Translations under genes and position numbers: made by a program
DNA from: an uncultured Methanobacteriaceae archaeon
GTDB lineage: Archaea; Methanobacteriota; Methanobacteria; Methanobacteriales; Methanobacteriaceae
NCBI GenBank assembly: GCA_964444115.1
Contig: CAYUFT010000002.1
Span: forward strand, 1-52,827
Reading direction: 5' to 3'
DNA length: 52,827 bases
Notes under the pieces: generated by a model
What the model saw: the letters and a program-made list of their open reading frames with translations, nothing else
Databases searched by the model: none
Told to the model about the DNA's origin: nothing
Shown here: in pieces, positions 16,166 to 49,624 of the stretch
Position numbering within the stretch: position 1 is the stretch's first letter
Layout of the letters: each line of letters opens with the position of its first letter

Positions 16166-16170
16166 TATAT

Positions 16171-16852: not shown

Positions 16853-17160
16853 TGATTTAAATAGGGTTTGCCTACGGCAGGTTCATAAACCTGGTTTCTC
16901 TTCCATGGTGTGATGCTTTCAGGATGTCAACGTTTTTAATCAAATATGCATTATATTTTTTTATAATAATGATTTAGATTATTTTTACTTTTCATACGCT
17001 CTATCCAAATCCTATTATACTTGAATGGTCGACTTATAATAGATATGAGGAGATTAAATACATTATATCAAAATTGAATCCAAATAACCTGCTTTGAGTC
17101 GATATTCAAAGTAATAGGAAATATTATTTTTAAAAATATTATTGGGGATTTTAAGTAAAA

Positions 17161-32050: not shown

Positions 32051-32242
32051 ATGACGGGGGATGAACAGTTTGCAAATATTCTTCTCAAAGAAGTTTTTGA
32101 AGATTTTATAAAAGAATTAGAAAACGATACAGAGTTTCCAAAATATGTTATCAACAATTTAAAGAAATTTAAAACTTATGATTTAACATCAAAAGAAACC
32201 ATGTTAAAATCTTTAAAAAGAGAGGATTCTAATGAAGATTAA
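32051..32242 (+). CDS. Small acidic protein (63 aa) overlapping the start of the ABC ATPase gene
   Basis: ATG preceded by AGGTG. 11-nt overlap with the 32232 gene. No motif. Confidence 0.4.
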   Translation: MTGDEQFANILLKEVFEDFIKELENDTEFPKYVINNLKKFKTYDLTSKETMLKSLKREDSNED

Positions 32243-34604
32243 AAATATTCAAATAGAATCTTTTAGGGGAATACCCTATCTAGATCAACCTTTGAATGAG
32301 AAAAGTTTGTTAATTCATGGCGAAAATGGAACTGGAAAAAGTTCTATAGTAGACGCAATTGAATATTTTTTTACGGGGAATATTTCCCATTTATCTAGGC
32401 CTTTTTCCATTAAAAATCATGGAACTCATACCAATTACTCACCAGAAGATCTTAAGGTATGTTTAGAATTAAATCCAACAAGCTGTTCACTAGAGAGAAC
32501 CATGGATTCAGTACCAATATGTCCTGAGGAACTTGAGGATGATATGGCAGCTGCTGAAAACAGCCCATTTATTTTACGAAGGTCTCAAATTCTTGAATTT
32601 ATTAATAGTGCTCCTGGTAAAAGATATAAACAAATTGGGAGTATGATTGGGGTGGATAATCTAGAAAAGATTGAAAGCACCCTAAAAGATGCCGTCGGTG
32701 ACATCCAGAGCGATATAAATACCAAACTCGGGCATTCCGAGAAAATAAAAGAAAATTTAGGCCAAATTTTAGATGATGATCTGAAAGAAGCTTATGAAAT
32801 TTTGGCTTTAATAAATAATTTTCTAGATAAAGAAGATCTTGATCATTTAGAATCTGTTGATGAAATTGAAGATTATGTTAATAAACTTGAAAAAACAGTT
32901 AAAACAATAGATTCAAGCAAAATTCATACTTTAGATAATATTTCCGGAAAAATTAAGAAAATAAATTCCGCTGATATAGAAATAACTGAGTTATTTAGTA
33001 TAATAGAAGATTTAAAAGAAAAAATCTTCCAAGAGCATGATATTTCTGATTTATCATTAATAGAAATCCTTAAAACTTCTAAAAAAATTCTCACAAAAAG
33101 TAAAACTTGTCCAATATGTGAAAATGAAATTAATGGAAAAGAACTTGTTGAAAAAATTGATGAACGTTTAAATGGGCTTGAAATACTTAAACAAAATCAT
33201 GACGAATTGAAAAAATCTATTAATGATCTTTACAAACTTATTGAGTTAGATAAAAGAAATTTAGAAAGTTTAATTGACGAATTGGAAATATTTGAAGAAT
33301 TTAATGAGTTAAATGATATCGCAACTAATAAAAAAGATTCTTTTGAAGATTTATTGAAAAATATTAATCAAGAGTCTTTCATTAAAGAAGAAATTCAGTT
33401 AGAATACTATGAAACTCTTAAATCGTCTCTAGAAGAATTTTTAAAAGATTTATCAAAACAAAATGAAAAATTAGAAGAAGAATTGAAACCTTCAGAAAAA
33501 GATGAAAATATTACTGAAATTTGTAAGAGTCTTTTAGAAATTAAAGGATATCTAAATGATTTAAATGATTTAAATAAACATATTTCTCAATTAGAGTCTG
33601 AATTAAAACTTGCAGATAAGATGTATACTGTTTTTTCTAAAATTCGAAAGGAAAAAATCCAAGAAATTTATGACACCATTGAAAAAGATGTTCAGAATTT
33701 CTATAGCATAATACATCCCAATGAGTTGTATGATGAGATAAAAATTGATATTGATCATTCGAGAAGAGCAAGTACCAACTTAAAAATGACAATTTTTGGT
33801 AAAGAAGATCAAGATCCTCGTGCATTAAGTAGTGAAGGCCATTTAGATTCATTAGGATTATGTATTTTCTTAGCACTTTTTAAAAATTTTAATAAAGAAT
33901 TCCCTCTTCTGGTTTTAGATGATGTGGTGTCAACCATGGATTCTAGGCACAGAGAACACGTTTGCAAACTTTTGTTTGAAAAATTTGCTGATAAACAACT
34001 TATAATAACTACTCATGATGGAATTTGGTTTGATCAATTAAAAGCTGCTCAAAGAGCCTATGGCCTATCAGGAAAATTTGAAAATATACAAATTGTTGGA
34101 TGGGATCTTGAGAATGGGCCTGTTATTGACAAATACACACCAAGATGGGATCGAATTCAGAATAAAATAAAAGAAAGAGACACTCATTGCGCTGGAAATG
34201 AAGGTCGGCGATATTTAGAATGGTTACTTAAAGAAATTTGTACTAATTCAAAGGCCAAAATTCCCCTAAAATCATCTGGAAGATATGAAATAAATGATCT
34301 TTTTGATCCCGCCAAGACAAGAATGATTAAACTAATCGAAGATCCTGATCTCAAGAAAGAACTTGAATCATCTTTTGATGAATTGAAAGCTACTATGATT
34401 ATGGGTAATTTATTATCTCATGAAAATTTGATGGCCGGAAATGTTTCTATCGATGAAGTAGAAAGTTTTTGCAATTCAATTCACAAACTTCATGAATTTA
34501 TGCTTTGTGATGAATGCAGTAATCCACTTAGATATTATCAAGAGATAAAAGTATTCAGATGTAGTGGTAAGAACTGTTCTAATCCAACCGAGATTAAATG
34601 CTAG
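32232..34604 (+). CDS. PrrC/RloC-like (AAA_13-type) ABC ATPase with a long coiled-coil insert, a CxxC hook and a C-terminal His-containing module plus Zn ribbon
   Basis: Walker A GENGTGKSS (about 32328-32354). Roughly 400 aa of heptad-rich insert with CPIC at 33108-33119. Signature-like LSSEGHLDSLGL, Walker B LLVLDDVVSTMD, H-loop ITTHD. C-terminal GRRYLEWLLKE ... GNLLSHEN ... CDECSN...FRCSGKNC. Confidence 0.75.
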   Translation: MKIKNIQIESFRGIPYLDQPLNEKSLLIHGENGTGKSSIVDAIEYFFTGNISHLSRPFSIKNHGTHTNYSPEDLKVCLELNPTSCSLERTMDSVPICPEELEDDMAAAENSPFILRRSQILEFINSAPGKRYKQIGSMIGVDNLEKIESTLKDAVGDIQSDINTKLGHSEKIKENLGQILDDDLKEAYEILALINNFLDKEDLDHLESVDEIEDYVNKLEKTVKTIDSSKIHTLDNISGKIKKINSADIEITELFSIIEDLKEKIFQEHDISDLSLIEILKTSKKILTKSKTCPICENEINGKELVEKIDERLNGLEILKQNHDELKKSINDLYKLIELDKRNLESLIDELEIFEEFNELNDIATNKKDSFEDLLKNINQESFIKEEIQLEYYETLKSSLEEFLKDLSKQNEKLEEELKPSEKDENITEICKSLLEIKGYLNDLNDLNKHISQLESELKLADKMYTVFSKIRKEKIQEIYDTIEKDVQNFYSIIHPNELYDEIKIDIDHSRRASTNLKMTIFGKEDQDPRALSSEGHLDSLGLCIFLALFKNFNKEFPLLVLDDVVSTMDSRHREHVCKLLFEKFADKQLIITTHDGIWFDQLKAAQRAYGLSGKFENIQIVGWDLENGPVIDKYTPRWDRIQNKIKERDTHCAGNEGRRYLEWLLKEICTNSKAKIPLKSSGRYEINDLFDPAKTRMIKLIEDPDLKKELESSFDELKATMIMGNLLSHENLMAGNVSIDEVESFCNSIHKLHEFMLCDECSNPLRYYQEIKVFRCSGKNCSNPTEIKC

Positions 34605-34637
34605 TAATTAATTTATTGATTTCATTAAATTGACAGA

Positions 34638-34646
34638 TTTTATAAA
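34638..34646 (+). promoter_or_regulatory. Candidate TATA box for the Type I R-M operon
   Basis: TTTATAAAA lies 56 nt upstream of the hsdM ATG, and GAGGG lies 8 nt upstream of the ATG. By position only. Confidence 0.3.
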
Positions 34647-34701
34647 ATAAGAAAGAAGATATTAAATTAATAAATCAGAAATTTTATCGAGGGTATTTAA
34701 A

Positions 34702-36258
34702 ATGGCAGTGAATAACAGCGAGATAGAAAACAAATTATGGAAAGCAGCCGATCAACTGAGAGCAAACTCAAAATTAACAGCCTCTGAATACTCAATTCCA
34801 GTTTTAGGACTAATTTTTTTACGTTATGCTGATTCTAAATTTACTTTGGCAAAAGAAAAGATAGAAAGCGAATTTAAAAATAAGAATAGTCGGATGGGAA
34901 TCAAGAAAGAACACTATCAATCAAAAGGTGTTCTATATCTCCCTGAAGAATCACGTTTTTCAAATCTTCTAGAACTGCCTGAAGACCAAAATATAGGAAG
35001 GGCAGTAAATGATGCCATGAAGGCCATTGAAGCTGAAAATGATGAATTAAAAGACGTATTACCCAAAACTTACAACCGATTAGAAAATGATGTATTGATT
35101 TCATTATTAAAAAACTTCTCTAACATATCAATTGATCTTGAAGGAGATGTTTTTGGGAAAATTTACGAATATTTCTTAGGTAAATTCGCAATGGCTGAAG
35201 GCCAACGGGGAGGAGAATTTTTTACTCCTACATCTTTAGTTAAATTGATAGTAGCGATAATCAAACCATTCCATGGCCGTATTTATGATCCTGCATGTGG
35301 TTCTGGAGGTATGTTTGTCCAGAGTGCTCATTTTGTAGAAGAGCATAAAAAAAATCCTACCAAAGAAATAGCAATTTATGGGCAGGAAAAAACTGCAGCC
35401 ACTATAAGATTATGTAAGATGAATCTTGCCGTGCATGGTTTATCCGGAGATATAAGACAAGGAAACACGTATTATGAAGATATACACAACTCTTTTGGTA
35501 AATTCGACTTTGTAATGGCCAATCCACCATTTAATGTGAGTGGGGTCGATAAAGAAAAGGTTAAAGACGATAAAAGATTTTCTTATGGTATTCCTCGTGC
35601 TGACAATGGAAACTATCTCTGGATTGAAGCTTTTGCCAATGCACTTAATCCAAAAGGGCGTGCCGGATTTGTCATGGCCAATTCTGCTGGTGACGCTGGA
35701 CAGTCTGAACTTGAAATTCGTAAAAAGTTAATCGAAGAAGGAATTGTAGATGTAATGGTTTCAGTAGGGCCTAATTTCTTTTATACTGTAACTTTACCTT
35801 GCAGCCTATGGTTTTTAGATAAAAACAAAAAAGGAACTCCTACTGAAAATAAAGTTCTTTTCATAGATGCTCGTGAAACTTATAGGCAAATTGACCGTGC
35901 ACATCGCGATTTTAAACCAGAACAAATTGAATTTTTAGCAAATATTGCTAGACTCTATCGTGGAGAAGAAATCGAGAATTTACATAATAGTAAATCGTTA
36001 GTTAATGAAACTTTTCCCGAAGGAGAATATAAAAATGTTTTAGGTCTTTGTAAATTAGTAAATTTTGATGAAATCATTGAAAATGGATATTCACTGAATC
36101 CTGGCCGTTATGTTGGTGTTGCTGAAATGGAAGAAGATGAATTTGATTTTAATGAGCGTTTGCATGAAATAAATAATGAGTTTCAACATTTGAATAAAAA
36201 AGCCCATGAATTAGAGAAAACAATTACAGAAAATTTATCTTCTTTATTGGAGAAATAG
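34702..36258 (+). CDS. hsdM: Type I restriction-modification system, methyltransferase subunit
   Basis: HsdM N-terminal helix bundle (LWKAADQLR), FFTP, motif [13 protein letters not shown], motif [11 protein letters not shown]. Confidence 0.95.
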
Positions 36259-36259
36259 C

Positions 36260-37561
36260 ATGCTTAAATTTCATAAATTAGATAATGTGACAAATTTCCT
36301 CGGTAGGGGTGTTCAGCCAGCCTATGATGAAAATGGAATTATTGTTTTTAATCAAAGGTGCATTAGGAATAATATTGTAAGTTTAAAGGAATCTCGAATT
36401 ACTAATCCTGAAAAAAGAAAAATTTCTAAAGAAAAATTTCTTCAAAAATATGATGTTTTAGTTAATTCAACGGGTGTAGGCACTCTAGGACGTGTTGGGC
36501 AGATTAAAGATATAAATTACGCCGCTACTGTGGATTCTCATGTAACCATTGTGAGACCGAATTTAAGTTGTTTTAATGGATTATTTTTTGGATATGCAAT
36601 GGTGTATTCCCAACCAAAAATAGAAGCTATGGGAGAAGGTACTACTGGTCAGACAGAACTTTCTAGAAAACGTTTAGGTTCTCAAATTAAAGTTCCTATC
36701 CCTAATTTAGAAATTCAAAATAAAATTGCTGAAATTCTTACAGCATATGATAATCTTATTGAAAACAATAATAATAGGATTCAAATATTATCTAAATTAA
36801 CAGAAATTATTTTTAGAGAATGGTTTATAAAATACAGATTCCCAAGTAAAGAAAAATTCGAAATGATTGAATCAAAAGTAGGATTAATACCTCAAAATTG
36901 GGAAATTAAGCCTTTGAGAGAGCTAATTTCTTATTACATTGGTGGTGGATGGGGAAAAGAATATCATGAATCTGATTTTCCTGATGAAGCATATGTAATT
37001 AGAGGTACTGACATACCCCAAGTTTCAGTTGGAAATTTAAAATCGTGTCCACATCGATTCCATAAAGCTTCAAATTTAAAATCAAGAAAAATTAAATCAA
37101 CGGATATTGTATTTGAGGTTTCTGGAGGAAGCAAAGGTCAACCCGTAGGTAGAAATATTCTCATTACAGAAGAAGTTGTTAATAGGCTGAGTAATATTAT
37201 GTGTGCGAGTTTTTGTAAATTGATTAGGCCTAATAATGAATTAATTAGCCCATTCTTTTTAGATCAATTCTTTAAATATATTTATAAATCTGGTGAAATT
37301 TTAACTTATCAAACACAATCAACGGGAATTTCAAATTTCAAATTTGAATATTTCTTAGATAAAGTTATGATCGCTGTTCCTCCTAAAGAGTTATCAATTG
37401 AATTTACAAATATTATATCTCCGATTTATGAATTGATAGCTAAATTAGGCCATAAAAACGAAATTTTACTTCAAAAAAGAGATTTAATCCTTCCCAAACT
37501 TATTTCAGGCCAAATAGATATCACAGATTTAGATATTATCACAGAGGAGATAGAATCATGA
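36260..37561 (+). CDS. hsdS: Type I restriction-modification system, specificity subunit (two TRDs)
   Basis: Two variable halves, each followed by a conserved helix (ILTAYDNLIENNNNRIQILSKLTEIIFREWF and LLQKRDLILPKLISGQIDI). 1-nt gap from hsdM and 4-nt overlap with hsdR. Confidence 0.9.
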   Translation: MLKFHKLDNVTNFLGRGVQPAYDENGIIVFNQRCIRNNIVSLKESRITNPEKRKISKEKFLQKYDVLVNSTGVGTLGRVGQIKDINYAATVDSHVTIVRPNLSCFNGLFFGYAMVYSQPKIEAMGEGTTGQTELSRKRLGSQIKVPIPNLEIQNKIAEILTAYDNLIENNNNRIQILSKLTEIIFREWFIKYRFPSKEKFEMIESKVGLIPQNWEIKPLRELISYYIGGGWGKEYHESDFPDEAYVIRGTDIPQVSVGNLKSCPHRFHKASNLKSRKIKSTDIVFEVSGGSKGQPVGRNILITEEVVNRLSNIMCASFCKLIRPNNELISPFFLDQFFKYIYKSGEILTYQTQSTGISNFKFEYFLDKVMIAVPPKELSIEFTNIISPIYELIAKLGHKNEILLQKRDLILPKLISGQIDITDLDIITEEIES

Positions 37562-40500
37562 CTCCAGGTTCATATTCTGAAGATGCATTGATTGAACAAC
37601 CAGCCATTGAATTGTTCAAGTCTTTAGGCTATGAACATAAAAATGGTTTTCATGAGACATTAGGTGAAAATGGAACTTTTAGTAGAGAAACTCAATCAGA
37701 AGTTGTTCTTAAAAAGCGATTAAAAGATTCTCTAATTCGTTTAAACCCTGGAATACCAGATCATATCATTGATCTTGCAATTGAAGACATCAGTAGAGAT
37801 AGGAGTATTCTAAATCCTACTGTGGCCAATCATGAAATTTATAAAATGATTCGAGATGGGATTAAAGTAAGTGTCAATTTTGATGAGGAATATGAAGAAA
37901 TTGAAACTCTAAAGATAATTGATTTTGATAACCCAAATAATAACGACTTTTTTTTGGCTTCACAGTTCTGGATCACTGGAGATATTGAGAAAAGAAGAGC
38001 AGATTTAGTAGGTTTTGTTAATGGCCTACCCCTTATTTTTATTGAACTAAAAGCAGCACATCGGAAAGTTAGTGATGCATTTACACATAATTTATCAGAT
38101 TATAAAGATACTATTCCCCAATTATTCTGGTATAACACTTTTATTATATTATCAAATGGTTCTCAAAGCAAAATTGGAACCATATCTGCTAAATTAGAAC
38201 ATTTTAGTGATTGGAAAAGAATTTCTAGTGAAGGAGAAAAAGGAATAATTTCTTTAGACACGATTATAAGAGGAACTTGTCAAAAAGAAAGATTTTTAGA
38301 TTTATTAGAAAACTTCACATTATTTAATGACGGTGGAACTCTGATTAAGATTCTAGGAAGAAACCACCAATATTTAGGAGTTAATAATGCCATTGAATCT
38401 TTTGAAAAGATTAAAGAAAACCAGGGAAAATTAGGGGTTTTCTGGCATACTCAGGGGAGCGGGAAAAGTTATTCCATGATTTTCTTTTCACAGAAAATTT
38501 TAAGGAAATTCCCTGGAAATTACACTTTTTTAATTGTTACTGATAGAAAAGAGTTAGATGATCAGATTTATAAAAATTTTGCCAATGCTGGTGCAGTAAT
38601 TGAGGATGAAGTACATGCAAAAAGCGGCGCCCATTTACAAGAGCTCTTAAGAGAAAACCATCGCAATATTTTCACACTTATCCATAAATTTCAAACAGAT
38701 GAAGGTGAAATCTATCCTGTTTTATCGGAACGTTCAGATATCATTGTTATTACTGACGAAGCACATCGTTCTCAGTACTCTACACTGGCCATGAACATGC
38801 GAACTGCACTTCCTAATGCTGCTTTTATTGCGTTTACCGGAACTCCTTTAATGGCGGGAGAAGAACTTACTAAAAATACCTTTGGGGATTATGTTAGCAT
38901 ATACAACTTCCGACAGTCTATTGAAGATCAGGCAACGGTTCCTTTATACTATGAGAACCGTATCCCAGAAGTTCAACTCAAAAATAAGGATCTTAACTCA
39001 GATATGGAGCGTATTATTGAAGATGCGCTGCTTGATGAGGACCAGCTGCAAAAACTTGAGCGAGAATTTGCCAGAGAATATCACTTAATAACTCGCAATG
39101 ATCGGCTCGAAAAAGTTGCAGAAGATATTGTCGATCATTTTATAGGCCGTGGCTATGATGGAAAAGCCATGGTAGTGTCCATTGATAAACCAACTGCAGT
39201 TAAAATGTACAATAAAGTTCAAGAATACTGGAAACATCATATTATTGAACTCCAAGATGAAATTAATCTTATTGATGATCCATCCCATAGAAAAGAGCTT
39301 GAAAATAAGCTTAATTTTATGATGGAAACTGATATGGCCGTTGTGGTAAGTGGTGGTCAAAATGAATTTGAAAAGTTCAAGCGCCTTAATTTAGACATAA
39401 AATCCCATCGTAAGAGAATGCAAAGTGAAGATTTAGCTTCCATGTTCAAAGATGCTGATAACCCTTTCAGAATTGTTTTTGTATGTGCTATGTGGATGAC
39501 TGGTTTTGATGTTCCTTCACTTTCAACCATTTACTTAGATAAACCAATGCGTAACCATACACTAATGCAGACTATCGCAAGAGCAAATAGGGTCTTTGAA
39601 GATAAGCCAAATGGTTTAATTGTTGATTACATTGGAGTATTTAGAGATTTGAAGAGAGCTTTGGCAATATATGGAGCTCCTGGAGAAGAATCAGAGGATA
39701 TTCCTGTAAAACCAAAATCAGAACTCATCGAAGAACTTAAAGAAGCATTAGATGAGATTGAAAGTTTTTGTAAAGAAAAAGAAATTAATACAATAGATAT
39801 TATATCTACAACAGGTTTTGAGAAAGTTAAACTCCTTGAAGATGCTGTAGATTCAATTTTAGTTAATGAAGATTCTAAAAAGAAATATTTTACCTTAGAA
39901 AGTGCTGTAAAAAACTTATTTAAAGCAATATTGCCTGATCGTGATGCTGGAATATTTAACGAAAAGGTTACATTATTTAGAATAATTTCCGAAAAAATTA
40001 GATCTTTAGATCCTGATGTTGATATATCCGAAGTAATGGACGACGTTGAGAAATTACTCGATGATTCGATTGAAAGCGAAGGATATATGATAAAAGCTAA
40101 AGGAAAAGGGATAGATTTAAGTAAAATCGACTTTGATGCTTTAAGAAAACACTTCGAAACAGGTAGAAAACATACAAAAGCAGAAAAGCTCAAAAATGAT
40201 GTTCAAAGAAAGGTTAAAGAGATGGTAACTCTTAATCAAACCAGAATAGATTTCATGGAAAAATTTGAAAAGATAATAAACGATTATAATTCTGGATCTG
40301 CCAACGTAGAAGCATTTTTTGAAGAATTGATGGAATTTGCAAAGGAGTTGAATAAAGAAGATATAAGGGGCATTTCTGAAAATCTTACTGAAGAAGAATT
40401 AGTAATCTTTGATTTGATTTACAAAGATGATCTAAAAGAAAAAGAAAAGAAAAAAGTTAAAAATACAGCTAAGTATCTTCTTAAAGTTCTAAAAAACGAA

Positions 40501-40701
40501 AAATTAGTTATTGACTGGAGAAAAAAACAGCAGTCAAGAGCTGATGTGTTATTTACTATTGAAAGCATTTTAGATGAATGTTTACCAAGAAGTTACTCTC
40601 CAGAAATATACGAAGAAAAATGTAATTTTGTTTATCAGCATATTTATGATTCATATTATGGGGTTGGGGAAAGCCTATATTCCAAAATGGGAATTGCTTG
40701 A
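37558..40701 (+). CDS. hsdR: Type I restriction enzyme, endonuclease/translocase subunit
   Basis: N-terminal nuclease region (RADLVGFVNGLPLIFIELKA), WHTQGSGKS, VITDEAHRSQ, FTGTP, QTIARANR. Confidence 0.95.
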   Translation: MTPGSYSEDALIEQPAIELFKSLGYEHKNGFHETLGENGTFSRETQSEVVLKKRLKDSLIRLNPGIPDHIIDLAIEDISRDRSILNPTVANHEIYKMIRDGIKVSVNFDEEYEEIETLKIIDFDNPNNNDFFLASQFWITGDIEKRRADLVGFVNGLPLIFIELKAAHRKVSDAFTHNLSDYKDTIPQLFWYNTFIILSNGSQSKIGTISAKLEHFSDWKRISSEGEKGIISLDTIIRGTCQKERFLDLLENFTLFNDGGTLIKILGRNHQYLGVNNAIESFEKIKENQGKLGVFWHTQGSGKSYSMIFFSQKILRKFPGNYTFLIVTDRKELDDQIYKNFANAGAVIEDEVHAKSGAHLQELLRENHRNIFTLIHKFQTDEGEIYPVLSERSDIIVITDEAHRSQYSTLAMNMRTALPNAAFIAFTGTPLMAGEELTKNTFGDYVSIYNFRQSIEDQATVPLYYENRIPEVQLKNKDLNSDMERIIEDALLDEDQLQKLEREFAREYHLITRNDRLEKVAEDIVDHFIGRGYDGKAMVVSIDKPTAVKMYNKVQEYWKHHIIELQDEINLIDDPSHRKELENKLNFMMETDMAVVVSGGQNEFEKFKRLNLDIKSHRKRMQSEDLASMFKDADNPFRIVFVCAMWMTGFDVPSLSTIYLDKPMRNHTLMQTIARANRVFEDKPNGLIVDYIGVFRDLKRALAIYGAPGEESEDIPVKPKSELIEELKEALDEIESFCKEKEINTIDIISTTGFEKVKLLEDAVDSILVNEDSKKKYFTLESAVKNLFKAILPDRDAGIFNEKVTLFRIISEKIRSLDPDVDISEVMDDVEKLLDDSIESEGYMIKAKGKGIDLSKIDFDALRKHFETGRKHTKAEKLKNDVQRKVKEMVTLNQTRIDFMEKFEKIINDYNSGSANVEAFFEELMEFAKELNKEDIRGISENLTEEELVIFDLIYKDDLKEKEKKKVKNTAKYLLKVLKNEKLVIDWRKKQQSRADVLFTIESILDECLPRSYSPEIYEEKCNFVYQHIYDSYYGVGESLYSKMGIA

Positions 40702-40739
40702 AATTACTTAATTGGAAATAGAATTAATAAAGGTGCAAA

Positions 40740-42884
40740 ATGAAACTATTTGAAGAATCTGAATTAATTCAGTCATCAATATCTTATTTAAGGAATGAAT
40801 TAGGTTTCAGTTTAATTGATTATGAAGTTCCATTTAATATTGGAAAAACAAAAAATAGGGCAGATATTGTAGTTTATAAAAAGAAAAATAATGAACAAAA
40901 GCCCTATATTTTAGTTGAAGTTAATTCACAAGATAAAATCGGAAAATATGCATGGATTCAAGCTGAAAGCTATGCTAAAAGATTAAAAACTCCTTACTTT
41001 GCTGTTACAAATGGTAATGAATGGCAATGGTTTAAAACTGGGAAAATTGGTGAATCTGATGAAATTAATATTGATCAAATAAATCGTTCTGGAACCACTG
41101 TGGGTAAAATTACTATTAAAGATCAAAAACATTTTTTAAAAGTTTTTGATCATATGAAACAGATTGTATATGAATCTGAAAATTTAAGATCAGATAAAAC
41201 CCTATATGAACTAATAAAAATAATATTTGTTAAGTTGGAATATGATAAAGACATTAATAAAAAAAATTCTTTAATTGGTGAAGACAGAAGTTTAACAGAC
41301 GGAATTAATGATTTTTATCAAATAAAGCTAAAAAAATACCCTAAATTGATTGATTCGAAATTAAACGAAAATTTTTTTAGAATAAACCTTAGTGAAGAAA
41401 CAATTTCTAAATTAATTAGTATTTTAGATCAATTTAAATTTATTGATTCCGATGTTAATGAATGTTTTAATCTTAATCTGCCTACTTTGGGTTATAACTT
41501 CAAAAATGAATTAGGATATTTCTTTATACCTCTTGAATTAAGTAAATTCATTGTTAATTTTATTAATCCAAGTATTGATAATTCAATTTTAAATCCTGCC
41601 TGCAAAAACGGAGCTTTATTAATTGAAACAATTAAAAAAAATTGTGAAGAGTTAAAAAGCTCAGAAAAGCCTGAAAATATTAAAGCTAATATATCTAAAA
41701 AAATTCATGGAATAGAAGATAACCCTGAACTTTACTGGTTTACTTGCATGAATTTAATTCTACATGGATATAGTGCTGATGGAATATCCCTTACAGATAC
41801 CTTAAATTTAGAAGAAAATGATAAATACGATATAATTTTTGTTATGCCCCCATTTGGCCATATAAATCGTTTTAATAATTTTATATCTGATGAAAATTTA
41901 AGAATAAGATATACAGAAGAAGCTTTTTTATTAAAATCTATTAAATTGCTTAAAAATTCAGGCAAAATGAGTATAATATTACCTGATCGAGTTTTGACGA
42001 GTCCTAGTGCTAGACTTTTAAGAAAATATTTAAAAGAAAAAATGAATATTTTATCGATTATTTCTTTACCAAATAACATTTTTATTCATAAAAATATTAA
42101 AACATCCATTTTGTTTCTCGAAAAAAAAGAAGAAGGATTTTCTAAACAAAAAACCGTTTTTATGGTTGATTTCCAATCTAAACATCAATTAAAGGAAAAG
42201 GATTTTAATGAAGTTTTAGAAGATTACATTCTTTTTAAAAAGACAAATTTAAAAAAGGGACGAATAAGTGAGAGTTCTTTCGCAGTGAATGAAGATTTGA
42301 TTATTGAAAATGATGTTTTAAGTACTTCTTATTATAATCCCGAATATTTAGAAATTAAAAATCAATTAAAAAAATTAAAGAATCAAAAAAAATTAAAAGA
42401 TATTGGTGAAATATCCATAGGACAAAGATTTAAAGATAATTTTGAATCATCTGACAGCAGCATACCTCTTATAAAGATTAAAAATATAGTTGATGGAAAA
42501 ATTTCAAAAAAAGATCTAAAATTTATAGAGATAAATAATCCTCGGACGAAATTATGGTCACCTGATACGTTAATAATTTCTCGAATTGGACTAAAAAATA
42601 AAATTGCAATATTACCGCCTGATTTTCCAAAATATACTCTAGATAAAAATTTAATAGGTATAAAACTTGAAAAAAACGTTATACCTGAATATTTGGCTTT
42701 ATTTTTAAATTCGAAATATGGAACGGTGCAGTTAGAATCAATAAAAGTTTCTGGAATAATTCCATATCTTGGTTTATCACATTTAAAGGAGATTATTATA
42801 CCTCTAAACTCAATTAAAGCTCAGAAAAAAATTTTGGAATTAAAAGATGGAAATGAAAATGATTTTTTTATGGAGATTAAATAA
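40740..42884 (+). CDS. Fusion protein: HsdR_N-like PD-(D/E)xK-fold N-domain + HsdM-like domain with degenerate catalytic motifs + a single HsdS-type TRD
   Basis: N-terminus NRADIVVYKK...PYILVEVNSQDK...YFAVTNGNEWQWF. MTase fold FFIPLELSKFIV, IHGIEDNPELYWFTCMNLILHG, SIISLPNNIF...TSILFLEK. Motif I reads ILNPACKNGALL (41592-41612) and motif IV reads FVMPPFG (41844-41855), not DPACGSG and NPPF. The C-terminal 190 aa or so are TRD-like. Confidence 0.8.
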   Translation: MKLFEESELIQSSISYLRNELGFSLIDYEVPFNIGKTKNRADIVVYKKKNNEQKPYILVEVNSQDKIGKYAWIQAESYAKRLKTPYFAVTNGNEWQWFKTGKIGESDEINIDQINRSGTTVGKITIKDQKHFLKVFDHMKQIVYESENLRSDKTLYELIKIIFVKLEYDKDINKKNSLIGEDRSLTDGINDFYQIKLKKYPKLIDSKLNENFFRINLSEETISKLISILDQFKFIDSDVNECFNLNLPTLGYNFKNELGYFFIPLELSKFIVNFINPSIDNSILNPACKNGALLIETIKKNCEELKSSEKPENIKANISKKIHGIEDNPELYWFTCMNLILHGYSADGISLTDTLNLEENDKYDIIFVMPPFGHINRFNNFISDENLRIRYTEEAFLLKSIKLLKNSGKMSIILPDRVLTSPSARLLRKYLKEKMNILSIISLPNNIFIHKNIKTSILFLEKKEEGFSKQKTVFMVDFQSKHQLKEKDFNEVLEDYILFKKTNLKKGRISESSFAVNEDLIIENDVLSTSYYNPEYLEIKNQLKKLKNQKKLKDIGEISIGQRFKDNFESSDSSIPLIKIKNIVDGKISKKDLKFIEINNPRTKLWSPDTLIISRIGLKNKIAILPPDFPKYTLDKNLIGIKLEKNVIPEYLALFLNSKYGTVQLESIKVSGIIPYLGLSHLKEIIIPLNSIKAQKKILELKDGNENDFFMEIK

Positions 42885-43681
42885 TGAAATTTTCATCCTC
42901 CGATATTTTCTGTATTTGTAAAATTATTAATGATTATTTCCCGTTAGAAGTCATTATCGGTGAGTTAACTGAAATTACTAATGATCAGGATTTAGATACA
43001 TTTCCAGAAATTCAGGAAACTATTTATAATTCAACTCAATCATTAAACTCAGATGCTATTAATGAATTAAGCGAATATTTTCATAGTTATCATATTAACT
43101 TTTTTTTGTTTATTAAAAAATTTGTCTCTGAAGAATTTTCAGAAACTTATTTAGAATATTTCCAATCATCAGATTTCTTAAAAAAGTTAAATAAAATTTT
43201 AATTGCCTATGAAATACGTATTAAAAACTATAAAATCCAAAAAAGAGTTTTTTTATTGCAAAATAGCTCTTTAGAGGAAAATTTATTATTTGTAGATATA
43301 ATAACACCAGATCATGTTGTTGATTATTACAAAGAATCATTAATTTGTCTAAATAATGAAACATTTAGATCATCTATTCTTTTTTGTGTTTTTGCTTTTG
43401 AGGCCGGGCTAAAATGTATGTATTATACTGTAGAAAAAAAAATTCCAAACGAACCGCTTCGTAGATTAATAGATTGGGCCAATAATAATAATCTTTTAGA
43501 AAAATTAGATGAAGACTATGATGAAGGCTATGAGGAATTAATTAAATTAAAAGATTATAGGAATATTCTTGTACATTGTAGTCCAAAGGAACGCGAAGAT
43601 ATCTCTTCAGAAATTGCAGGAAACCGAGCAGTAGCTGATTTAAATTTAATTAACCAGTCTTTAAATTCAATATTTGATTAA
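42884..43681 (+). CDS. HEPN-domain protein (predicted RNase)
   Basis: C-terminal four-helix pattern with FAFEAGLKCMYY... and the R-x4-H motif KDYRNILVHCS (43559-43576). Its start shares 1 nt with the stop of the upstream gene (TAATG). Confidence 0.6.
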   Translation: MKFSSSDIFCICKIINDYFPLEVIIGELTEITNDQDLDTFPEIQETIYNSTQSLNSDAINELSEYFHSYHINFFLFIKKFVSEEFSETYLEYFQSSDFLKKLNKILIAYEIRIKNYKIQKRVFLLQNSSLEENLLFVDIITPDHVVDYYKESLICLNNETFRSSILFCVFAFEAGLKCMYYTVEKKIPNEPLRRLIDWANNNNLLEKLDEDYDEGYEELIKLKDYRNILVHCSPKEREDISSEIAGNRAVADLNLINQSLNSIFD

Positions 43682-43694
43682 TAGGGGGGCTTAG

Positions 43695-46600
43695 ATGAAA
43701 TGGACATTTATTATAAATAAAGATTTTTATTCCGAACTAAAATCCAAGAATGAAATAAAATGGAATAGTGCTAAAGAAGTGAAGAAAGGAGACATAATTT
43801 TAATATATACTGGATCTCCTTACAGCAATATTGGTTTCATTTTAAAAGCTATTTCAGACCCTTTTGAAGATTCAGAAATAAGAAAAGCCTGGGATAGACC
43901 AGCAATAATGGTTGAAAAATTACTCGAAATTCCAGAACCTATCGAACTATCTCAACTAAAAGAAAACCCCATATTAAGCAATTGGGGTGCCGTGAGAATG
44001 GGTTTTAGGGGTTCTCATTTCAAAATGTCACAAGAAGAGTGGAAAGAAATAATAAAACTTATTTTAGGGCAAAATCCTGAATTGGAAGTTGAAATTCTAA
44101 ATTTAGAAAACATATTATCAAATGGGACAATTAATCCAGAAACTATACATTATAATGATTTAAGTGCTGGTCGGGCCCATTTAGTTCGTGATTTATGCTA
44201 TTTAATAGAAAAAAATAGTAATTTAAGTGAAAAAAAGCTTTTTGATATCTTAAGGAGAAAAGTAGGAAATAATGATAATTATTGGAAAGCATATTTTTTA
44301 AGATCTAATAAAAATAACAGTCCTCAGTACAGTTTAAATTCAGCAAGAAGTTTAGGGCTGGTTGAAAAAAATTCACTACACCTAACTGAAACAGGAAAAG
44401 AATTAGCAGATTTATCTACATCCAATGAATTATTCACTCATTATTATGGGCTAGAAGTAAAAAAGTTCTTCTTTAAATTGGCTGCTTCTATCCATTCTAT
44501 AAAAACAGCTATGCAAATTTTAAAGGAAAAAAGAGAATTGCGTTTTTATTCTCCAACCTGTAAAGAAATTGATAAAGTGACTTGGGACTGGAAGATCGAA
44601 AATGGAAAAGTAATTTGTGAATCTGACAAATATAACAAATGTAAATTATGTGATAACGATTTTATGACTCATATGAAAGAATCATCACTACCCCTTGAAA
44701 CTATGCAAAAAACTAATGGGGAAGGATACGGATTTGTATTCTGGATGTGCAGTCGTATCACTCCAATGCATTTGAAAGGTTCAGATCCAGTTTATTCTGG
44801 AAATTATATTTATTGGGATGATGATGCTGAAAAAGAGCTTGGGCATCTAATTAAAATATTAGATGAAAATAAAAATTCATCCCCCAAAGTATGGAAAATA
44901 TCTCCAGGTAACTTTGAAAAAAGAAAAAAATTATGGCCAATCCTTGTTGAAAAAGGTTATATTGGAGTAGGATGGTTTGGTTGTGAATCTTTTATCAAGA
45001 AATCATTTTCTCAATTTAAATCACTAGATAGTTTAAAAGAAGAACTTCAAAAATGCTCCAAAAAGAAAGCAGTTATAAAAAATGCAGACATGATATGGAA
45101 TTTTGGAAAAGAAATTAAAATTGGAGATTATGTTGTAGCTAACAATGGCCTTAAAGGAATATGGGGCATAGGAATAATAAAAAGTGATTATATACCTCCA
45201 GATGAATCAATTAAGTTGAAGATTGATGAAGATAATGAATATTTCCATTTCAGAAAAGTTGAATGGTTAATAACCGCTCCTATTGAAATGAAAGAAGATT
45301 ATTTTTTTGTACAACAAACTATTAAAAAAATAGATTCCGAGAAATGGAAAAAAATTAAGTCATCTTATATTAAAATAAACCCTGAATATGAACGTATTTT
45401 CAGAGAAATGGAAAATAAGTCGAAAAGTGGGGACATTGAACAAGAAATTAAATTAATTAAAAAGTTATATGCTGAATTCAATAAAGATTATTTTTCAAAA
45501 CCAATAGGCATAGAACATGCTGAGGGCTATGAAAAAGAAAGACAAGAAGTTCTTAAATATTACAACAAAATTAAAGATAATCCTGAAATTTTTAATGATA
45601 CCAATAACCCAATAATTAACTACCTCTTGCCAATAAAACGTTTTTCAGTTGCTCCTACCGGATTCAATGATATTAAAGCTGTTCGAAGAAGAGAAGATAA
45701 TCTGCCTGAATTTTCAGAGTCTGTTTATAATCTAATTATTGATTTAATCAACAAAAATGATTCTAATGAACAGAAAGAGGTAATTAATACATTTAAAACA
45801 GGAGATGGGAAGGGAATACAGTCTGCAGTTTTATCATCAGTTCTTTATTTCTTAAACCCAACTTATCTATATATTAACACAAAGACTGTAAAAACTTTTA
45901 GAATATTATCTGAACTTTTAGGTCATGACAAATATATCAATGGGAATTTAATCGACTATATTGATAATTTAAAAAGATTGAAAGAATTGAAAAATGAAAT
46001 TTCTGCAATTATACCCGAATTTAAAGATTTTGAGGTTTTTGATGCCTTCTGTAACTGGATGTGTGATGCAAATCTAGGTGCTTATGCAGTTAATGGTATA
46101 AAACTCGAAATTTTAAAAAAGAATTATGATTTAAACATCAAAAATTCATTTGAAATCCTTTTAGAAAATTACAACAAAGCTAAAGTAGATAAAGTTTCAC
46201 CTGCTGAAAAAATCTTAGTAAGAGACCTATTATCAACTACAATCCCTGAAAAGTTATCTGAAATAAATCAGGGCCAATATAAAATATTCAGTAGCGCTTG
46301 GGATAAATGGCATTATTGTCCCTATGTGGCCTTGATGAATGAAAAAATCACATCTAAACATATAACTGGATATTATGTTAATTACATGTTTAGAGAAGAT
46401 ATGAGTGGCATTTATCTGGCCTTAAGGCAAGGTGTGCCAGAATTTGATAAAAGAAAGCTGGCTAAAAATTCAGAAGAATATAGAAGTAAAATAAGATCTC
46501 AAAAAGAAGTTACTGAATTTTCAGAAGAAATTGACCTAAAATCCTCTCAGGGCCAATTTGGAAAGTTTTATGAATCTGCAAATATCTACTCCAAATTTTA

Positions 46601-47831
46601 TCCAAAAGAGAACATCCCTTCTGAGGAAGAATTAATCTCTGATCTTGAAAAAATGCTAAAACTTTATGATGATTTAAGTGAATTAACTTCTATTCAATTT
46701 AATTCATTCAATGACTTTTTAAAAGATAAGAACTTCTTATACACTCCAGAAATGTTGGAGAATTACTTACTTTCATTGAAGGTCAAACCATTTGTCATAT
46801 TAACGGGTAACTCCGGTACTGGTAAGACAAAAATAGCACAGCTTTTTGCAGAATACTTAGAACAAAAAGATGTAGGTGAATCAGTAATAATACCCGTGGG
46901 TGCTAACTGGACTGAAAATAGACATCTAATGGGATTCTTTAATGTGATAACCAGTGACTACCAGTCAACCCCAGCCCTAGATCTAATAATAAAGGCCTCA
47001 AATGACAATAGTAAACCTTATTTTTTAATCCTGGATGAAATGAATCTTTCTCATGTGGAACGTTATTTCTCTGACTTTTTATCGGCCATGGAAAGTGGTA
47101 AAGAAATATCCCTATATTCCAAGGATAATGCTAAAGTTATTAAGAACAAACTAATCCCTGAAAAACTGGAAATTCCAGATAACTTATTTGTTATTGGAAC
47201 CGTTAATGTGGATGAAACAACCTTTAGGTTATTTCCTAAGGTTCTGGATAGGGCCAATACTATTGAATTTAAAACATATCCTGCTAGGGACTACATAATG
47301 TGTGAAATTGAACATGAATCTCCCAAAGGAGATATTAATTATTTAGAGAATCCCATATCTGATTTTAAAATGAGAAAATGTAAAATAAACAATTTAAAAG
47401 ATAAATTAACTCACGTGAAAGTCAATGACAATAATAACCTCTGGGAAGAGTTGGCCTTAGAGATTCATTCATTCCAAGATGTTTTATCCACAGCAGGCTT
47501 TGATTTTGGATTCCGAGTTATTGATGAGATAATGAGATTCATGTATACTGCCTGGCTTTATGAAGATTCACCCGATGAATGGAATAACTGGGAGCGTTAT
47601 TTTGATGCTCAAATTATGCAAAAAATGCTTCCTAAAATTCATGGCTCTCAAAGAGAGCTTGAAACTATTTTAGAAGAACTTTTCAAAAAATGCTACCGAA
47701 GTAATTTTGAAGAATTGTGGTATTCAATTAATTTAGAAGGAAATGACATTATTTATGCATCAAGTGCTAAAAAGCTTCAAAGAATGGGTAAAACTCTTCA
47801 GGAAAAACGATTTGTATCATTTACGGATTAG
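43695..47831 (+). CDS. mcrB: McrB-like AAA+ GTPase with an N-terminal EVE/PUA-like domain, a second PUA-like domain and a DUF3578 (MrcB_N)-like domain
   Basis: EVE-like aa 1-125 (KGDIILIYTG...IGFILKAISDP...LSQLKENPIL...FKMSQEEWKEI). Second PUA-like domain about 44885-45300 (KVWKISPGN...GYIGVGW...IKIGDYVVA...GIGIIKSDY...FRKVEWL). DUF3578-like about 46250-46435 (WHYCPYVALMNEKITSKHITGYYVNYMFREDMSGIYLALRQG). AAA+ region: VILTGNSGTGKTK (46806-46829), FLILDEMNLSHVERYFSDFLSAME, FVIGTVNVDETT, LDRANTIEF. Confidence 0.85.
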   Translation: MKWTFIINKDFYSELKSKNEIKWNSAKEVKKGDIILIYTGSPYSNIGFILKAISDPFEDSEIRKAWDRPAIMVEKLLEIPEPIELSQLKENPILSNWGAVRMGFRGSHFKMSQEEWKEIIKLILGQNPELEVEILNLENILSNGTINPETIHYNDLSAGRAHLVRDLCYLIEKNSNLSEKKLFDILRRKVGNNDNYWKAYFLRSNKNNSPQYSLNSARSLGLVEKNSLHLTETGKELADLSTSNELFTHYYGLEVKKFFFKLAASIHSIKTAMQILKEKRELRFYSPTCKEIDKVTWDWKIENGKVICESDKYNKCKLCDNDFMTHMKESSLPLETMQKTNGEGYGFVFWMCSRITPMHLKGSDPVYSGNYIYWDDDAEKELGHLIKILDENKNSSPKVWKISPGNFEKRKKLWPILVEKGYIGVGWFGCESFIKKSFSQFKSLDSLKEELQKCSKKKAVIKNADMIWNFGKEIKIGDYVVANNGLKGIWGIGIIKSDYIPPDESIKLKIDEDNEYFHFRKVEWLITAPIEMKEDYFFVQQTIKKIDSEKWKKIKSSYIKINPEYERIFREMENKSKSGDIEQEIKLIKKLYAEFNKDYFSKPIGIEHAEGYEKERQEVLKYYNKIKDNPEIFNDTNNPIINYLLPIKRFSVAPTGFNDIKAVRRREDNLPEFSESVYNLIIDLINKNDSNEQKEVINTFKTGDGKGIQSAVLSSVLYFLNPTYLYINTKTVKTFRILSELLGHDKYINGNLIDYIDNLKRLKELKNEISAIIPEFKDFEVFDAFCNWMCDANLGAYAVNGIKLEILKKNYDLNIKNSFEILLENYNKAKVDKVSPAEKILVRDLLSTTIPEKLSEINQGQYKIFSSAWDKWHYCPYVALMNEKITSKHITGYYVNYMFREDMSGIYLALRQGVPEFDKRKLAKNSEEYRSKIRSQKEVTEFSEEIDLKSSQGQFGKFYESANIYSKFYPKENIPSEEELISDLEKMLKLYDDLSELTSIQFNSFNDFLKDKNFLYTPEMLENYLLSLKVKPFVILTGNSGTGKTKIAQLFAEYLEQKDVGESVIIPVGANWTENRHLMGFFNVITSDYQSTPALDLIIKASNDNSKPYFLILDEMNLSHVERYFSDFLSAMESGKEISLYSKDNAKVIKNKLIPEKLEIPDNLFVIGTVNVDETTFRLFPKVLDRANTIEFKTYPARDYIMCEIEHESPKGDINYLENPISDFKMRKCKINNLKDKLTHVKVNDNNNLWEELALEIHSFQDVLSTAGFDFGFRVIDEIMRFMYTAWLYEDSPDEWNNWERYFDAQIMQKMLPKIHGSQRELETILEELFKKCYRSNFEELWYSINLEGNDIIYASSAKKLQRMGKTLQEKRFVSFTD

Positions 47832-47836
47832 GTATA

Positions 47837-49624
47837 ATGATTACCCAAGAAATTAAAATCAGTTTCCAAGATGCATATGGGAATAATCTAGGAACACTGA
47901 TTATTACTTACTCTAACAAACACATTGAAGAGTATGAAACCTTCTCGAAAATGATTAATGGCAATTATATTGAATTTAAAAATGTTCCTCGAGTTTTTAA
48001 AACAAATCAGAATACAGCCATAGCATTTAATGAAAATAAATGTGTGCATGAGAGCATATTGCTACTGGAAGAAACGGAATATCAGCTTTTTTTCACTCCT
48101 GCGAATATTAATATTGAAAATATTTCATTTCCCACACTGGAAAAAAAAGACAAAACCCCGGTTTTCAAGAAATTAAATATTAATAGGGCTGATATTTACA
48201 GCGGAATTCTTAATTTCAAAGCATATGCTGGTAAATCATTTTTTGATGTTCAAATTGATAAAAACGTCTCTTTAAAATGTCCCTTCGAAGTTCGATCTAA
48301 AAAAATAGATTATATTAATCACTACTCCTCCATGATTAGTGATCTTTCACAAGCCGATTCTTCAATTATTCTTTATGATAAATCTCCGGTTCACAGTTTA
48401 CTAAACTTTGAAGAAAGGGTAAAAAAGAGTTTTTATGAAGATTTCATGTTTTTAGAATATATTTTCCGCCCTGAGAATCTTCCAACTTCTTATGGGCATA
48501 TAAGAAGAGACCCTCATAGAATACTAATTAAATATACTGAAACAGTCCCTATATCATTAGCATCATCTGTAGGGCCTTCCAGTTTAATTGATATAGTGGC
48601 TTGTCCTGAAAACCTGACTAAAACAGATGAAGTTCCTTTTAACTGGCCAGCTGAAATGAAGAACCTGGTTCCTCAGAAAGTCGCTAAAGAGAGTTATATT
48701 GATAATCTGGATACTCCTGAAAACAGATTTATTAAGTATTTTTTAACTTTATTATTTGAATTAATCAGTGAAATGAATTTATATATTGAAAAGGAAGGTA
48801 TTAATGGATATCCTGCTGAGAAGATAATAGAATATCAAGAAATTATTCAGGAATATGTTATGGATGAATGGGTAGATGAAGTAGGTAAACTGGATCATTT
48901 CCCATCAAATTCTCAAGTTCTACAAAAAAAAGAAGGATATCGAGAAATTTTTGACTATTTCCTAATATTCGAGTTCAGCTTTAATTTCCAGTTCGAAGAA
49001 GTAAAAGAAGAAATTAAAGGATATCAAAAAAAGCTCAGTGAACTTTATGAATACTGGTGCTATCTTAAACTTATTAAAATTATGAGTAAATTATCCAGAG
49101 TTAAAGTTAATTATTCCTCTATTTTCGATTTAAATAGAAAAAAATGGTCTATTAAGGTTAAAAGAGGGGAAGAATCATCTCAAAAATTTATAATCCCCTT
49201 AAATGATATGGATTTGGAAGTAGAATTAGAGTTTAACAGAGAATTTAAAAAATATGAATTAAATTACAATCCATATCCCTTAAAATATAGGCCAGATTAT
49301 ACAATTATAGTGAAAACAAGTTATTATAAAGTATTTTTACATTTCGATGCTAAATATAAACTAAACAAAGAAACTTTTAAAAATGAGGATATTTTTAAAA
49401 TGCATACATATAAAGATGCCATTAAATATTCATCAGGGGCTTATGTATTATATCCCGGTCTGAAAGAAGGAATATATTATGAAAACGAAAAAACTGTGGC
49501 ATCTGTAGGAGCATTCCCTCTTAAACCCGGAAAATTAGATATTGAAGATGAAAATAAGATAGAAACATTTTTAATTAAATTTTTAAACTTAATTTCAGAA
49601 GAATCAGAGGACAATATTAAATAA
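47837..49624 (+). CDS. mcrC: McrC-like protein (DUF2357-type N-region + PD-(D/E)xK nuclease, DUF524-like)
   Basis: 5-nt gap after the McrB-like gene. C-terminal nuclease motif YRPDYTIIVK...FLHFDAKYK (DAK at 49346-49354) ...HTYKDAI. Confidence 0.8.
   Translation: MITQEIKISFQDAYGNNLGTLIITYSNKHIEEYETFSKMINGNYIEFKNVPRVFKTNQNTAIAFNENKCVHESILLLEETEYQLFFTPANINIENISFPTLEKKDKTPVFKKLNINRADIYSGILNFKAYAGKSFFDVQIDKNVSLKCPFEVRSKKIDYINHYSSMISDLSQADSSIILYDKSPVHSLLNFEERVKKSFYEDFMFLEYIFRPENLPTSYGHIRRDPHRILIKYTETVPISLASSVGPSSLIDIVACPENLTKTDEVPFNWPAEMKNLVPQKVAKESYIDNLDTPENRFIKYFLTLLFELISEMNLYIEKEGINGYPAEKIIEYQEIIQEYVMDEWVDEVGKLDHFPSNSQVLQKKEGYREIFDYFLIFEFSFNFQFEEVKEEIKGYQKKLSELYEYWCYLKLIKIMSKLSRVKVNYSSIFDLNRKKWSIKVKRGEESSQKFIIPLNDMDLEVELEFNREFKKYELNYNPYPLKYRPDYTIIVKTSYYKVFLHFDAKYKLNKETFKNEDIFKMHTYKDAIKYSSGAYVLYPGLKEGIYYENEKTVASVGAFPLKPGKLDIEDENKIETFLIKFLNLISEESEDNIK

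Follow-up and report, generated by a model that had tools for sequence, protein, structure and literature searches.

A two-gene archaeal cassette of a motif-degenerate N6-methylase fusion and a predicted HEPN effector as a candidate sensor or decoy in restriction-modification defence

What does a DNA methylase fold do when both of its catalytic motifs have been replaced and a complete Type I restriction-modification (R-M) operon stands directly upstream? The question is raised by one gene in a 52,827-nucleotide (nt) stretch of contig CAYUFT010000002.1 (assembly GCA_964444115.1) from an uncultured Methanobacteriaceae archaeon; the whole stretch was analyzed and is called the window below. The product of this open reading frame (ORF), at 40740-42884 on the + strand, is referred to as T, and the genomic contexts of its relatives are given as loci labeled L001 and so on. 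The original prediction described T as an HsdM paralogue with both catalytic motifs degenerate that looks like a recognition scaffold rather than an enzyme. T and its parts were located as follows.

40740..42884, + strand: T, 714 amino acids (aa), with a PD-(D/E)xK head, a degenerate gamma-class N6-methyltransferase (MTase) fold and one HsdS-like target recognition domain (TRD)
40740..41054, + strand: nuclease head, HsdR-type PD-(D/E)xK (aa 1-105; Pfam HSDR_N_2)
41586..41621, + strand: degenerate motif I (S-adenosylmethionine, AdoMet, loop), ILNPACKNGALL (from alignment; no G-x-G in T)
41844..41855, + strand: degenerate motif IV, MPPF instead of NPPF (aa 369-372)
42372..42854, + strand: single HsdS-like TRD (aa ~545-705; PADLOC Specificity_I and NCBIfam MAD5/HsdS-like matches)

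Searches with Pfam matched T to HSDR_N_2 (aa 7-101, E = 1.7e-14) and N6_Mtase (PF02384; aa 254-526, E = 1.6e-36), phmmer aligned it with the solved HsdM 2okc (E = 3e-26), and PADLOC Specificity_I was found at aa ~550-700 (E = 1e-14). An AlphaFold2 model built from a 41-sequence alignment (pLDDT, the predicted local distance difference test, 83.7; pTM, the predicted template modeling score, 0.76) has a head of alpha-beta-beta-beta-alpha-beta topology and a Rossmann-like MTase fold with collinear motifs, as in the gamma class. With Foldseek, the model was matched in the PDB to the M-S fusion methylase 7eew, CamA, HsdM subunits, BsaXI and BpuSI, with E values for the MTase fold of 1e-20 to 1e-28. 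By Pfam, 2okc and Foldseek alike, the fold-defining blocks are kept, as had been proposed. The Type I HsdM of the window and the solved HsdM proteins 2okc and 2ar0 share with T the MTase fold and the collinear motifs X, I, II and IV, but T is only ~21-24% identical to HsdM, has lost the catalytic motifs and carries a fused head and TRD. HsdM_N (PF12161) was not matched in T by Pfam, whereas the HsdM of the window scores 1.5e-24, and the TRD of T is fused in cis rather than supplied by a separate HsdS. Rather than a plain HsdM paralogue, T is a Type IIB/IIG-like fusion in which an HsdR-type head is joined to a gamma-class methylase fold and an HsdS-like TRD. On its single chain it resembles a Type I enzyme that lacks the motor: the head is of HsdR type, the fold of HsdM type, and the TRD amounts to half an HsdS.

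The closest architectural counterparts are Type IIB/IIG enzymes (AloI/CjeI/PpiI/TstI type; BsaXI, 8w0p; BpuSI, 3s1s), which likewise join a nuclease, a gamma-class N6-MTase and one or more HsdS-like TRDs and are matched by Foldseek at E ~1e-19 to 1e-20. Relatives of T with 966-968 aa bear two TRDs and resemble the AloI type. Unlike these enzymes, T has degenerate motifs I and IV, a single TRD that is not hypervariable, a HEPN partner and a Type I operon beside it. Assignment to MADS MAD2 or MAD5 was rejected: T scored far under the cut-offs (99.6 bits against the NCBIfam MAD2 equivalog, cut-off ≥720 bits), and MAD2 is an active methylase.

The methylase blocks of T that had been quoted in the original prediction were all found, FFIPLELSKFIV at aa 261-272, ILNPACKNGALL at aa 283-294, IHGIEDNPELYWFTCMNLILHG at aa 322-343 and YDIIFVMPPFG at aa 363-373, and their counterparts in the HsdM of the window (34702-36258), which has canonical DPACGSGG and NPPF, begin at aa 173, 194, 225 and 268 in the same order. 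In motif I, PACKNGA of T aligns with PACGSGG. HMMER alignment of T with 2okc placed NPACKNG beneath DPACGTG and MPPFG beneath NPPFG. In the AlphaFold model, PACKNG forms the loop after beta-1 (283-285), the canonical position of motif I; E326, the acidic residue of motif II, is at the end of beta-2; and MPPF immediately follows beta-4 (363-368), the canonical position of motif IV. Neither of the patterns that mark N6_Mtase enzymes, (F/x)xGxG in motif I and (D/N/S)PP(Y/F/W) in motif IV, is present at these positions. A hidden intact motif was sought elsewhere in the 714 aa by regular expression, together with the structural positions, and was ruled out: no other (D/N/S)PP(Y/F/W/H) and no G-x-G tripeptide occur anywhere in T. 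The degeneracy of both motifs is confirmed because T contains no other intact motif. On these residues, T would not methylate its own recognition site, and both methylation and, probably in the one-TRD forms, AdoMet binding would have been lost.

T belongs to a small family. Among 5.8 billion clustered proteins, close relatives formed only eight clusters (37-87% identity; the named ones all Methanobacterium), and a profile search of 1.84 billion representatives returned two full-length 50%-identity clusters and two fragments, with scores falling from >1100 bits to ~300 bits outside the family. Motif IV is non-canonical in 10 of 10 related loci from Methanobacterium-like archaea, so that, on the question of whether homologues share MPPF or keep NPPF, no family member was found with a canonical motif IV. 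In one-TRD forms, motif IV reads MPPF, IPPF, FPPF, FPPL or FPHF and motif I reads ACK/NNG (ASNTG in one truncated copy), with G-x-G lost; in two-TRD forms, motif IV reads DPPM, NPPI or HPPV, with G-x-G kept. Among more distant proteins of the same architecture, 139 of 188 have strict NPPF. In public databases, relatives of T are annotated as "N-6 DNA methylase", "type I restriction enzyme M protein" or "restriction endonuclease subunit M".

Selection on the family was estimated as dN/dS, the ratio of nonsynonymous to synonymous substitution rates, by the Nei-Gojobori method. Values were 0.29-0.40 for the whole T gene, 0.23-0.44 for the MTase domain and 0.20-0.46 for the TRD, compared with 0.045 for the neighboring hsdM. 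Reading frames of T are intact (714-720 codons at ~26-31% GC), and invariant blocks lie outside the catalytic motifs. T is under purifying but relaxed constraint and is maintained by selection, not decaying, because dN/dS is 0.3-0.4; a pseudogene was ruled out by these values and the intact ORFs. A non-methylating recognition or scaffold role is the best reading because the motifs are degenerate in place, no intact copy exists, the loss is family-wide and selection is purifying.

One decaying copy was observed. In M. petrolearium (L004; AP027739.1, 10001-17664), a frameshift splits T into ORFs of 476 and 224 aa.

The gene after T encodes a second protein.

42884..43681, + strand: HEPN-fold partner, 265 aa, its start overlapping the stop codon of T by 1 nt (TAATG)

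A ~260-aa partner lies directly 3′ of T in all related loci, as an obligate neighbor, and in most its start overlaps or abuts the T stop codon. Homologues of the partner formed only 13 clusters among the same 5.8 billion proteins. An Rx4H motif, R226-N-I-L-V-H231 (nt 43559-43576), lies in the C-terminal half, and RNxLVH is shared by all 13 homologues without exception. AlphaFold modeled the partner as helical (pLDDT 84), and the best Foldseek matches of this model in the PDB, at weak E values, were TTHA/HepT toxins, the AbiA HEPN domain, AF_0298, TM0613 and the sacsin HEPN. Searches of the 265-aa protein with Pfam, NCBIfam and PADLOC gave nothing at usual thresholds, a sequence-profile search of the PDB gave weak, non-HEPN matches only, and the ~135-aa N-terminal domain was without a database family match. 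The definition of a HEPN protein, a four-helix up-down bundle with Rx4-6H, fits the motif, the helical model and the Foldseek matches, and the partner is treated here as a predicted HEPN RNase-type effector because it combines the motif with the predicted fold.

Directly upstream of T is an intact Type I R-M operon, which ends 38 nt before it.

34702..40701, + strand: Type I R-M operon, intact by Pfam (hsdM 34702-36258, hsdS 36260-37561, hsdR 37558-40701)

The arrangement recurs: of the 10 distinct loci, 6 have T immediately downstream of a Type I hsd operon (the window, L001, L003, L008, L006/7 and L096), with four different hsd gene orders. In L002, L004, L005 and L009, T instead follows DUF365, in some cases GmrSD, and DUF1802, and an Eco57I-like MTase and a phospholipase D (PLD)-helicase adjoin. 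An active MTase gene was always found near T in the loci examined. The context that decides how T functions is the overlapping HEPN partner, the recurrent Type I adjacency and a downstream McrB/McrC-like pair.

DUF365 and DUF1802 genes recur beside T-HEPN, upstream in four loci (L002, 7773-9984; L004, 7775-9983; L005, 2569-3588; L009, 3603-5807) and downstream in L006/7 (L006, 10828-11851), with GmrSD-HNH sometimes between them. Between the window and L001, nucleotide identity over 34600-43700 was 97-99.7% for hsdMSR (~98-99.7% for hsdS and hsdR), 92-95% for T and 64-77% for the HEPN gene, with a dip to 90-91% inside hsdM (35198-35797). The region is a mosaic with recombination boundaries at gene junctions, because identity falls stepwise.

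Loss of the catalytic residue is not confined to the family of T. The HSDR_N_2-N6_Mtase-TRD architecture has 510 representatives at E below 1e-30. About one-quarter of the best 150 have a non-canonical motif IV, and these group as 700-790-aa one-TRD proteins. In a second, independent clade (VPPF) of 23 clusters, motif IV starts with V or I in 20, and G-x-G and D...ExK are kept. In three of three contexts examined, the VPPF gene precedes one for a 244-253-aa Cas4-like PD-(D/E)xK protein that bears a Cys cluster, and a Type I operon comes next.

L091, 8533-9267: Cas4-like partner of a VPPF protein
L093, 6449-7183: Cas4-like partner of a VPPF protein
L095, 4270-5031: Cas4-like partner of a VPPF protein

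In these contexts also, an active MTase gene is near. As controls, canonical NPPF proteins were taken from a profile search of genome contigs combined with the motif I pattern, with at least 12 kb of sequence for each locus; the contig search gave canonical NPPF proteins only and no contexts of the degenerate clade. No HsdR or HsdM_N gene was found within 7 kb in 46 of 46 control loci. Type I adjacency in 9 of 13 degenerate and 0 of 46 control loci gave p = 6e-8 in Fisher's test, a value to be read with the loci being phylogenetically non-independent and the controls mostly bacterial.

For the window, L001, L003, L006, L008, L091, L093 and L095, the TRD of T was compared with each of the two TRDs in the neighboring HsdS. 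Similarity was generic only (21-30% identity) in both clades, and a shared specificity of T and the neighboring Type I system was rejected on this ground. Conservation of the TRD of T keeps pace with that of the other domains, which sets it apart from specificity subunits that diversify toward new DNA targets.

The reading that we tentatively favor, while placing it somewhat short of an even chance, is that T is a non-catalytic sensor or decoy that holds the HEPN effector, by analogy with Ronin or PrrC. T is the first gene of a two-gene cassette kept by selection, and the second encodes a HEPN protein, a predicted RNase. The dead M-S body would not methylate; its recognition surface would mimic a Type I complex and keep the effector in check. 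A phage anti-restriction factor (a DNA mimic or other Type I inhibitor) or abnormal DNA would engage this surface, upon which the HEPN RNase, and perhaps also the nuclease head, would be released and the infection aborted. In the one-TRD subclade, an EVE-McrB-like GTPase together with its partner may be linked to the cassette as well. Under such a guard or decoy model, catalysis by T would be dispensable and its TRD would not need to diversify.

Experiments have demonstrated such logic in Ronin and in PrrC with EcoprrI. Ronin of E. coli ECOR55 pairs an HsdMS decoy with the RonA toxin; Ocr, ArdA and Aop1 act as triggers, and cell death is independent of MTase catalysis, mutation of NPPF being without effect (10.1101/2023.04.06.535777). 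Both cassettes tie an M/S module to an effector gene, and in Ronin the methylase is dispensable and sensing of anti-restriction has been proposed. T and the HEPN gene show the same tight linkage, the toxicity of the latter being predicted, and the loss of the catalytic motifs in T is consistent with Ronin-type death independent of MTase catalysis. The likeness claimed is one of organization. Ronin is bacterial, has separate HsdM and HsdS, keeps NPPF and uses a 61-aa membrane peptide, whereas the partner of T is no RonA-like small membrane effector but a predicted 265-aa soluble HEPN-fold protein. Genomes with Ronin are mostly without hsdR, whereas T is usually beside a complete Type I operon. 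PMC3710099 describes PrrC-EcoprrI along with many further linkages of HEPN proteins to R-M. In PrrC, a HEPN anticodon nuclease of a Type Ic hsd locus, as in the T locus, an Rx4-6H HEPN protein stands in or beside a Type I locus in a multi-layer defence, but PrrC has an ABC-ATPase N-domain and binds an active Type I enzyme, whereas the HEPN protein beside T has a ~135-aa N-domain that is unrelated to it and is paired with a dead M-S fusion of its own. Another parallel is METTL14, a degenerate MTase fold kept as a nucleic-acid-binding scaffold; it shares with T the degenerate catalytic motif and differs in being eukaryotic, of the MT-A70 type, acting on RNA and having an active paralogue as partner.

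Several observations weigh against a sensor or decoy. The contact of T with the HEPN protein and its trigger are deduced from gene order alone, and the abortive outcome is presumed with them. The HEPN matches in Foldseek reach a probability of 1.0 but at weak E values (0.07-1), and sequence-only support for HEPN is marginal, a weak HepT-like Pfam match. Four of the 10 loci have no adjacent Type I operon, the controls are mostly bacterial, and the synteny of T loci is partly shared ancestry because the lineages that supplied them are few and related. Some activity might persist in the two-TRD relatives, in which G-x-G and a D or N in motif IV (DPPM, NPPI) are kept. We know of no anti-restriction proteins of Methanobacterium viruses. 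The downstream McrB-like genes point instead to a Type IV-like activity directed at DNA. Relatives of T keep the nuclease triad, for which a pure decoy would have no need.

This triad also bears on the claim that T is not an enzyme. It was identified as D42, E60 and K62; D42 and E60 are present in T, and K62 is replaced by N, so that the E-V-N noted in the original prediction is indeed at aa 60-62. The substitution is private to the window, since an 87%-identical homologue has E-V-K, D42...E60-x-K62 is kept in every relative, and ADIVV...VEVK is conserved in all homologues. In some PD-(D/E)xK enzymes, Q or E can stand in for this K. A scaffold that does not methylate agrees with the evidence, but to deny T any enzymatic role goes too far, given the triad in its relatives.

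Two further genes follow the cassette in the window, the first after 13 nt.

43695..47831, + strand: McrB-like GTPase, 1378 aa, chimeric (Pfam; BLASTP against two separate L002 proteins)
47837..49624, + strand: McrC-like nuclease, DUF2357 and PDDEXK_7 (Pfam, 9e-46 and 5e-27)

Together they have the components of a Type IV McrBC system, an McrB AAA+ GTPase and an McrC with DUF2357 and PD-(D/E)xK. In the McrB-like protein, aa 1-798 form an EVE and DUF8426-type region orthologous to the N-terminal region of a separate McrB-like gene of L002, and aa 815-1376, with MrcB_N (8.5e-32) and AAA_5, match a second, classical McrB of the same locus; a deletion or fusion seems to have exchanged both the GTPase module and the McrC that goes with it. 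Within the one-TRD subclade, L001, L002 and L010 have an EVE-DUF8426-AAA_5 gene and its unannotated partner a short distance after T-HEPN, and L004 has a disrupted copy; in L005 and L009, the gene after T-HEPN runs off the contig end. The partners in L001 (419 aa, 16069-17328) and L002 (544 aa, 16295-17929) had no Pfam or NCBIfam match, and BLASTP against the McrC of the window returned no match; these proteins are possibly a divergent component of McrC type. In L004, a DDE transposase of an insertion sequence (IS) element interrupts the DUF8426-AAA_5 gene.

These neighbors invite another explanation, which we regard as unlikely but worth serious attention: that T is a restriction-only specificity subunit of an McrBC-type complex and binds a fixed DNA sequence via its TRD. 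The target adenine would be flipped into a hydrophobic pocket that reads its state, possibly with a preference for N6-methyladenine; T would recruit the EVE-McrB-like GTPase and its partner, its own head or McrC would cut, and the HEPN protein would be a back-up effector. This would account for the McrB- and McrC-like genes 13 nt after T-HEPN and the EVE-DUF8426-AAA_5 genes with partners in L001, L002, L004 and L010, to which the N-terminal region of the window McrB is orthologous despite the GTPase swap. The conserved nuclease triad fits it, as does the change of the catalytic Asn to hydrophobic M, I, F or V, with V conserved across a whole clade, and associations of McrBC with methyltransferases are common and have been noted without explanation (PMC11090510). 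Nevertheless, two-TRD relatives (L003, L006/7 and L008) and the VPPF clade have a small nuclease partner and no McrB-like gene, and McrB is therefore outside the conserved core. Such a complex would leave the Type I adjacency unexplained, and binding of N6-methyladenine is purely conjectural; the hydrophobic replacements may be just tolerated in a buried position. An improbable alternative is a methylase-dead Type IIG/IIB-like endonuclease, in which the MTase fold and TRD would still find sites and sense unmethylated adenine, and host sites would be protected by the neighboring Type I or Eco57I-like MTase. Architecture and fold do match BsaXI, BpuSI and AloI-type R-M fusions, the nuclease motif is kept in relatives, and an active MTase gene is always nearby. 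However, TRDs of T in both clades lack specific similarity to those of the adjacent HsdS (21-30% identity), and protective methylation at the same sites is unlikely because the two are only generically similar; the TRDs of T are conserved while the neighboring systems differ, the window copy carries K62N, and cleavage usually needs AdoMet, which one-TRD forms probably cannot bind.

We consider it very improbable that T is a still-active N6-adenine methyltransferase with an unusual motif IV and AdoMet loop. The overall fold and E326 are conserved, two-TRD relatives keep G-x-G and D or N at position 1 of motif IV, and databases label the family "N-6 DNA methylase", but one-TRD forms have M, I or F in place of the position-1 Asn/Asp, the residue in contact with the target amino group, and K or N in place of the first Gly of G-x-G, and strict NPPF prevails in related proteins (139 of 188). 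Substitutions at these positions of motifs I and IV abolish activity in established MTase biochemistry. There is just as little to recommend a decaying, functionless relic of a Type IIG/IIB gene. The M. petrolearium copy is frameshifted (476 + 224 aa) with an IS element in its McrB-like gene, and a dN/dS of 0.3-0.4 is much more relaxed than the 0.045 of hsdM; yet lineages that share only 37-54% identity still have full-length ORFs, every domain has a dN/dS well under 1, blocks outside the catalytic motifs are invariant, the overlapping or abutting partner gene is conserved, and a parallel clade has a conserved VPPF.

The components of the T cassette are all of known kinds: Type IIB/IIG architecture, a HEPN effector, R-M-linked abortive modules and McrBC. 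The literature searched on inactive methylase domains in restriction and McrBC systems contained no description of the T family or of HSDR_N_2-MTase-TRD proteins that combine a degenerate motif IV with a small nuclease partner. It is possible, though we hold this with rather more doubt than belief, that T represents an unrecognized class of defence cassette, carried by archaea and probably by some bacteria too, in which a methylase-dead Type I mimic controls a nuclease toxin (HEPN or Cas4-like) and serves either to bait or sense the anti-restriction factors of viruses or to read adenine that is flipped or methylated. The catalytic Asn/Asp has been lost in at least two separate clades, each with a small nuclease partner and mostly beside Type I systems, a pattern that points to an unrecognized accessory layer of R-M defence. 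To our knowledge, guard or decoy surveillance of anti-restriction has been shown so far only in E. coli (PrrC, PARIS and Ronin), and such surveillance may extend to methanogenic archaea. If true, T would be the first archaeal decoy or guard of restriction-modification to be described and an instance of repeated, convergent pseudo-enzyme evolution. If the methylase of T is dead, methylome and R-M annotations of these genomes are wrong. T could also supply a natural non-catalytic, base-flipping, sequence-specific DNA-binding module.

Beyond the cassette and its immediate neighbors, T lies in a dense defence island of ~37 kb (window ~14800-52000), whose other members were located as follows.

14828-16165: Schlafen/AlbA_2-HATPase_c_4
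23701-24540: NERD
25746-28550, - strand: YprA-like DEAD-MZB-TPR helicase
28840-31911, - strand: superfamily 2 (SF2) helicase-HNH
32232-34604: SMC/LmuB-like ATPase
49662-50912, - strand: BrxD-like ATPase

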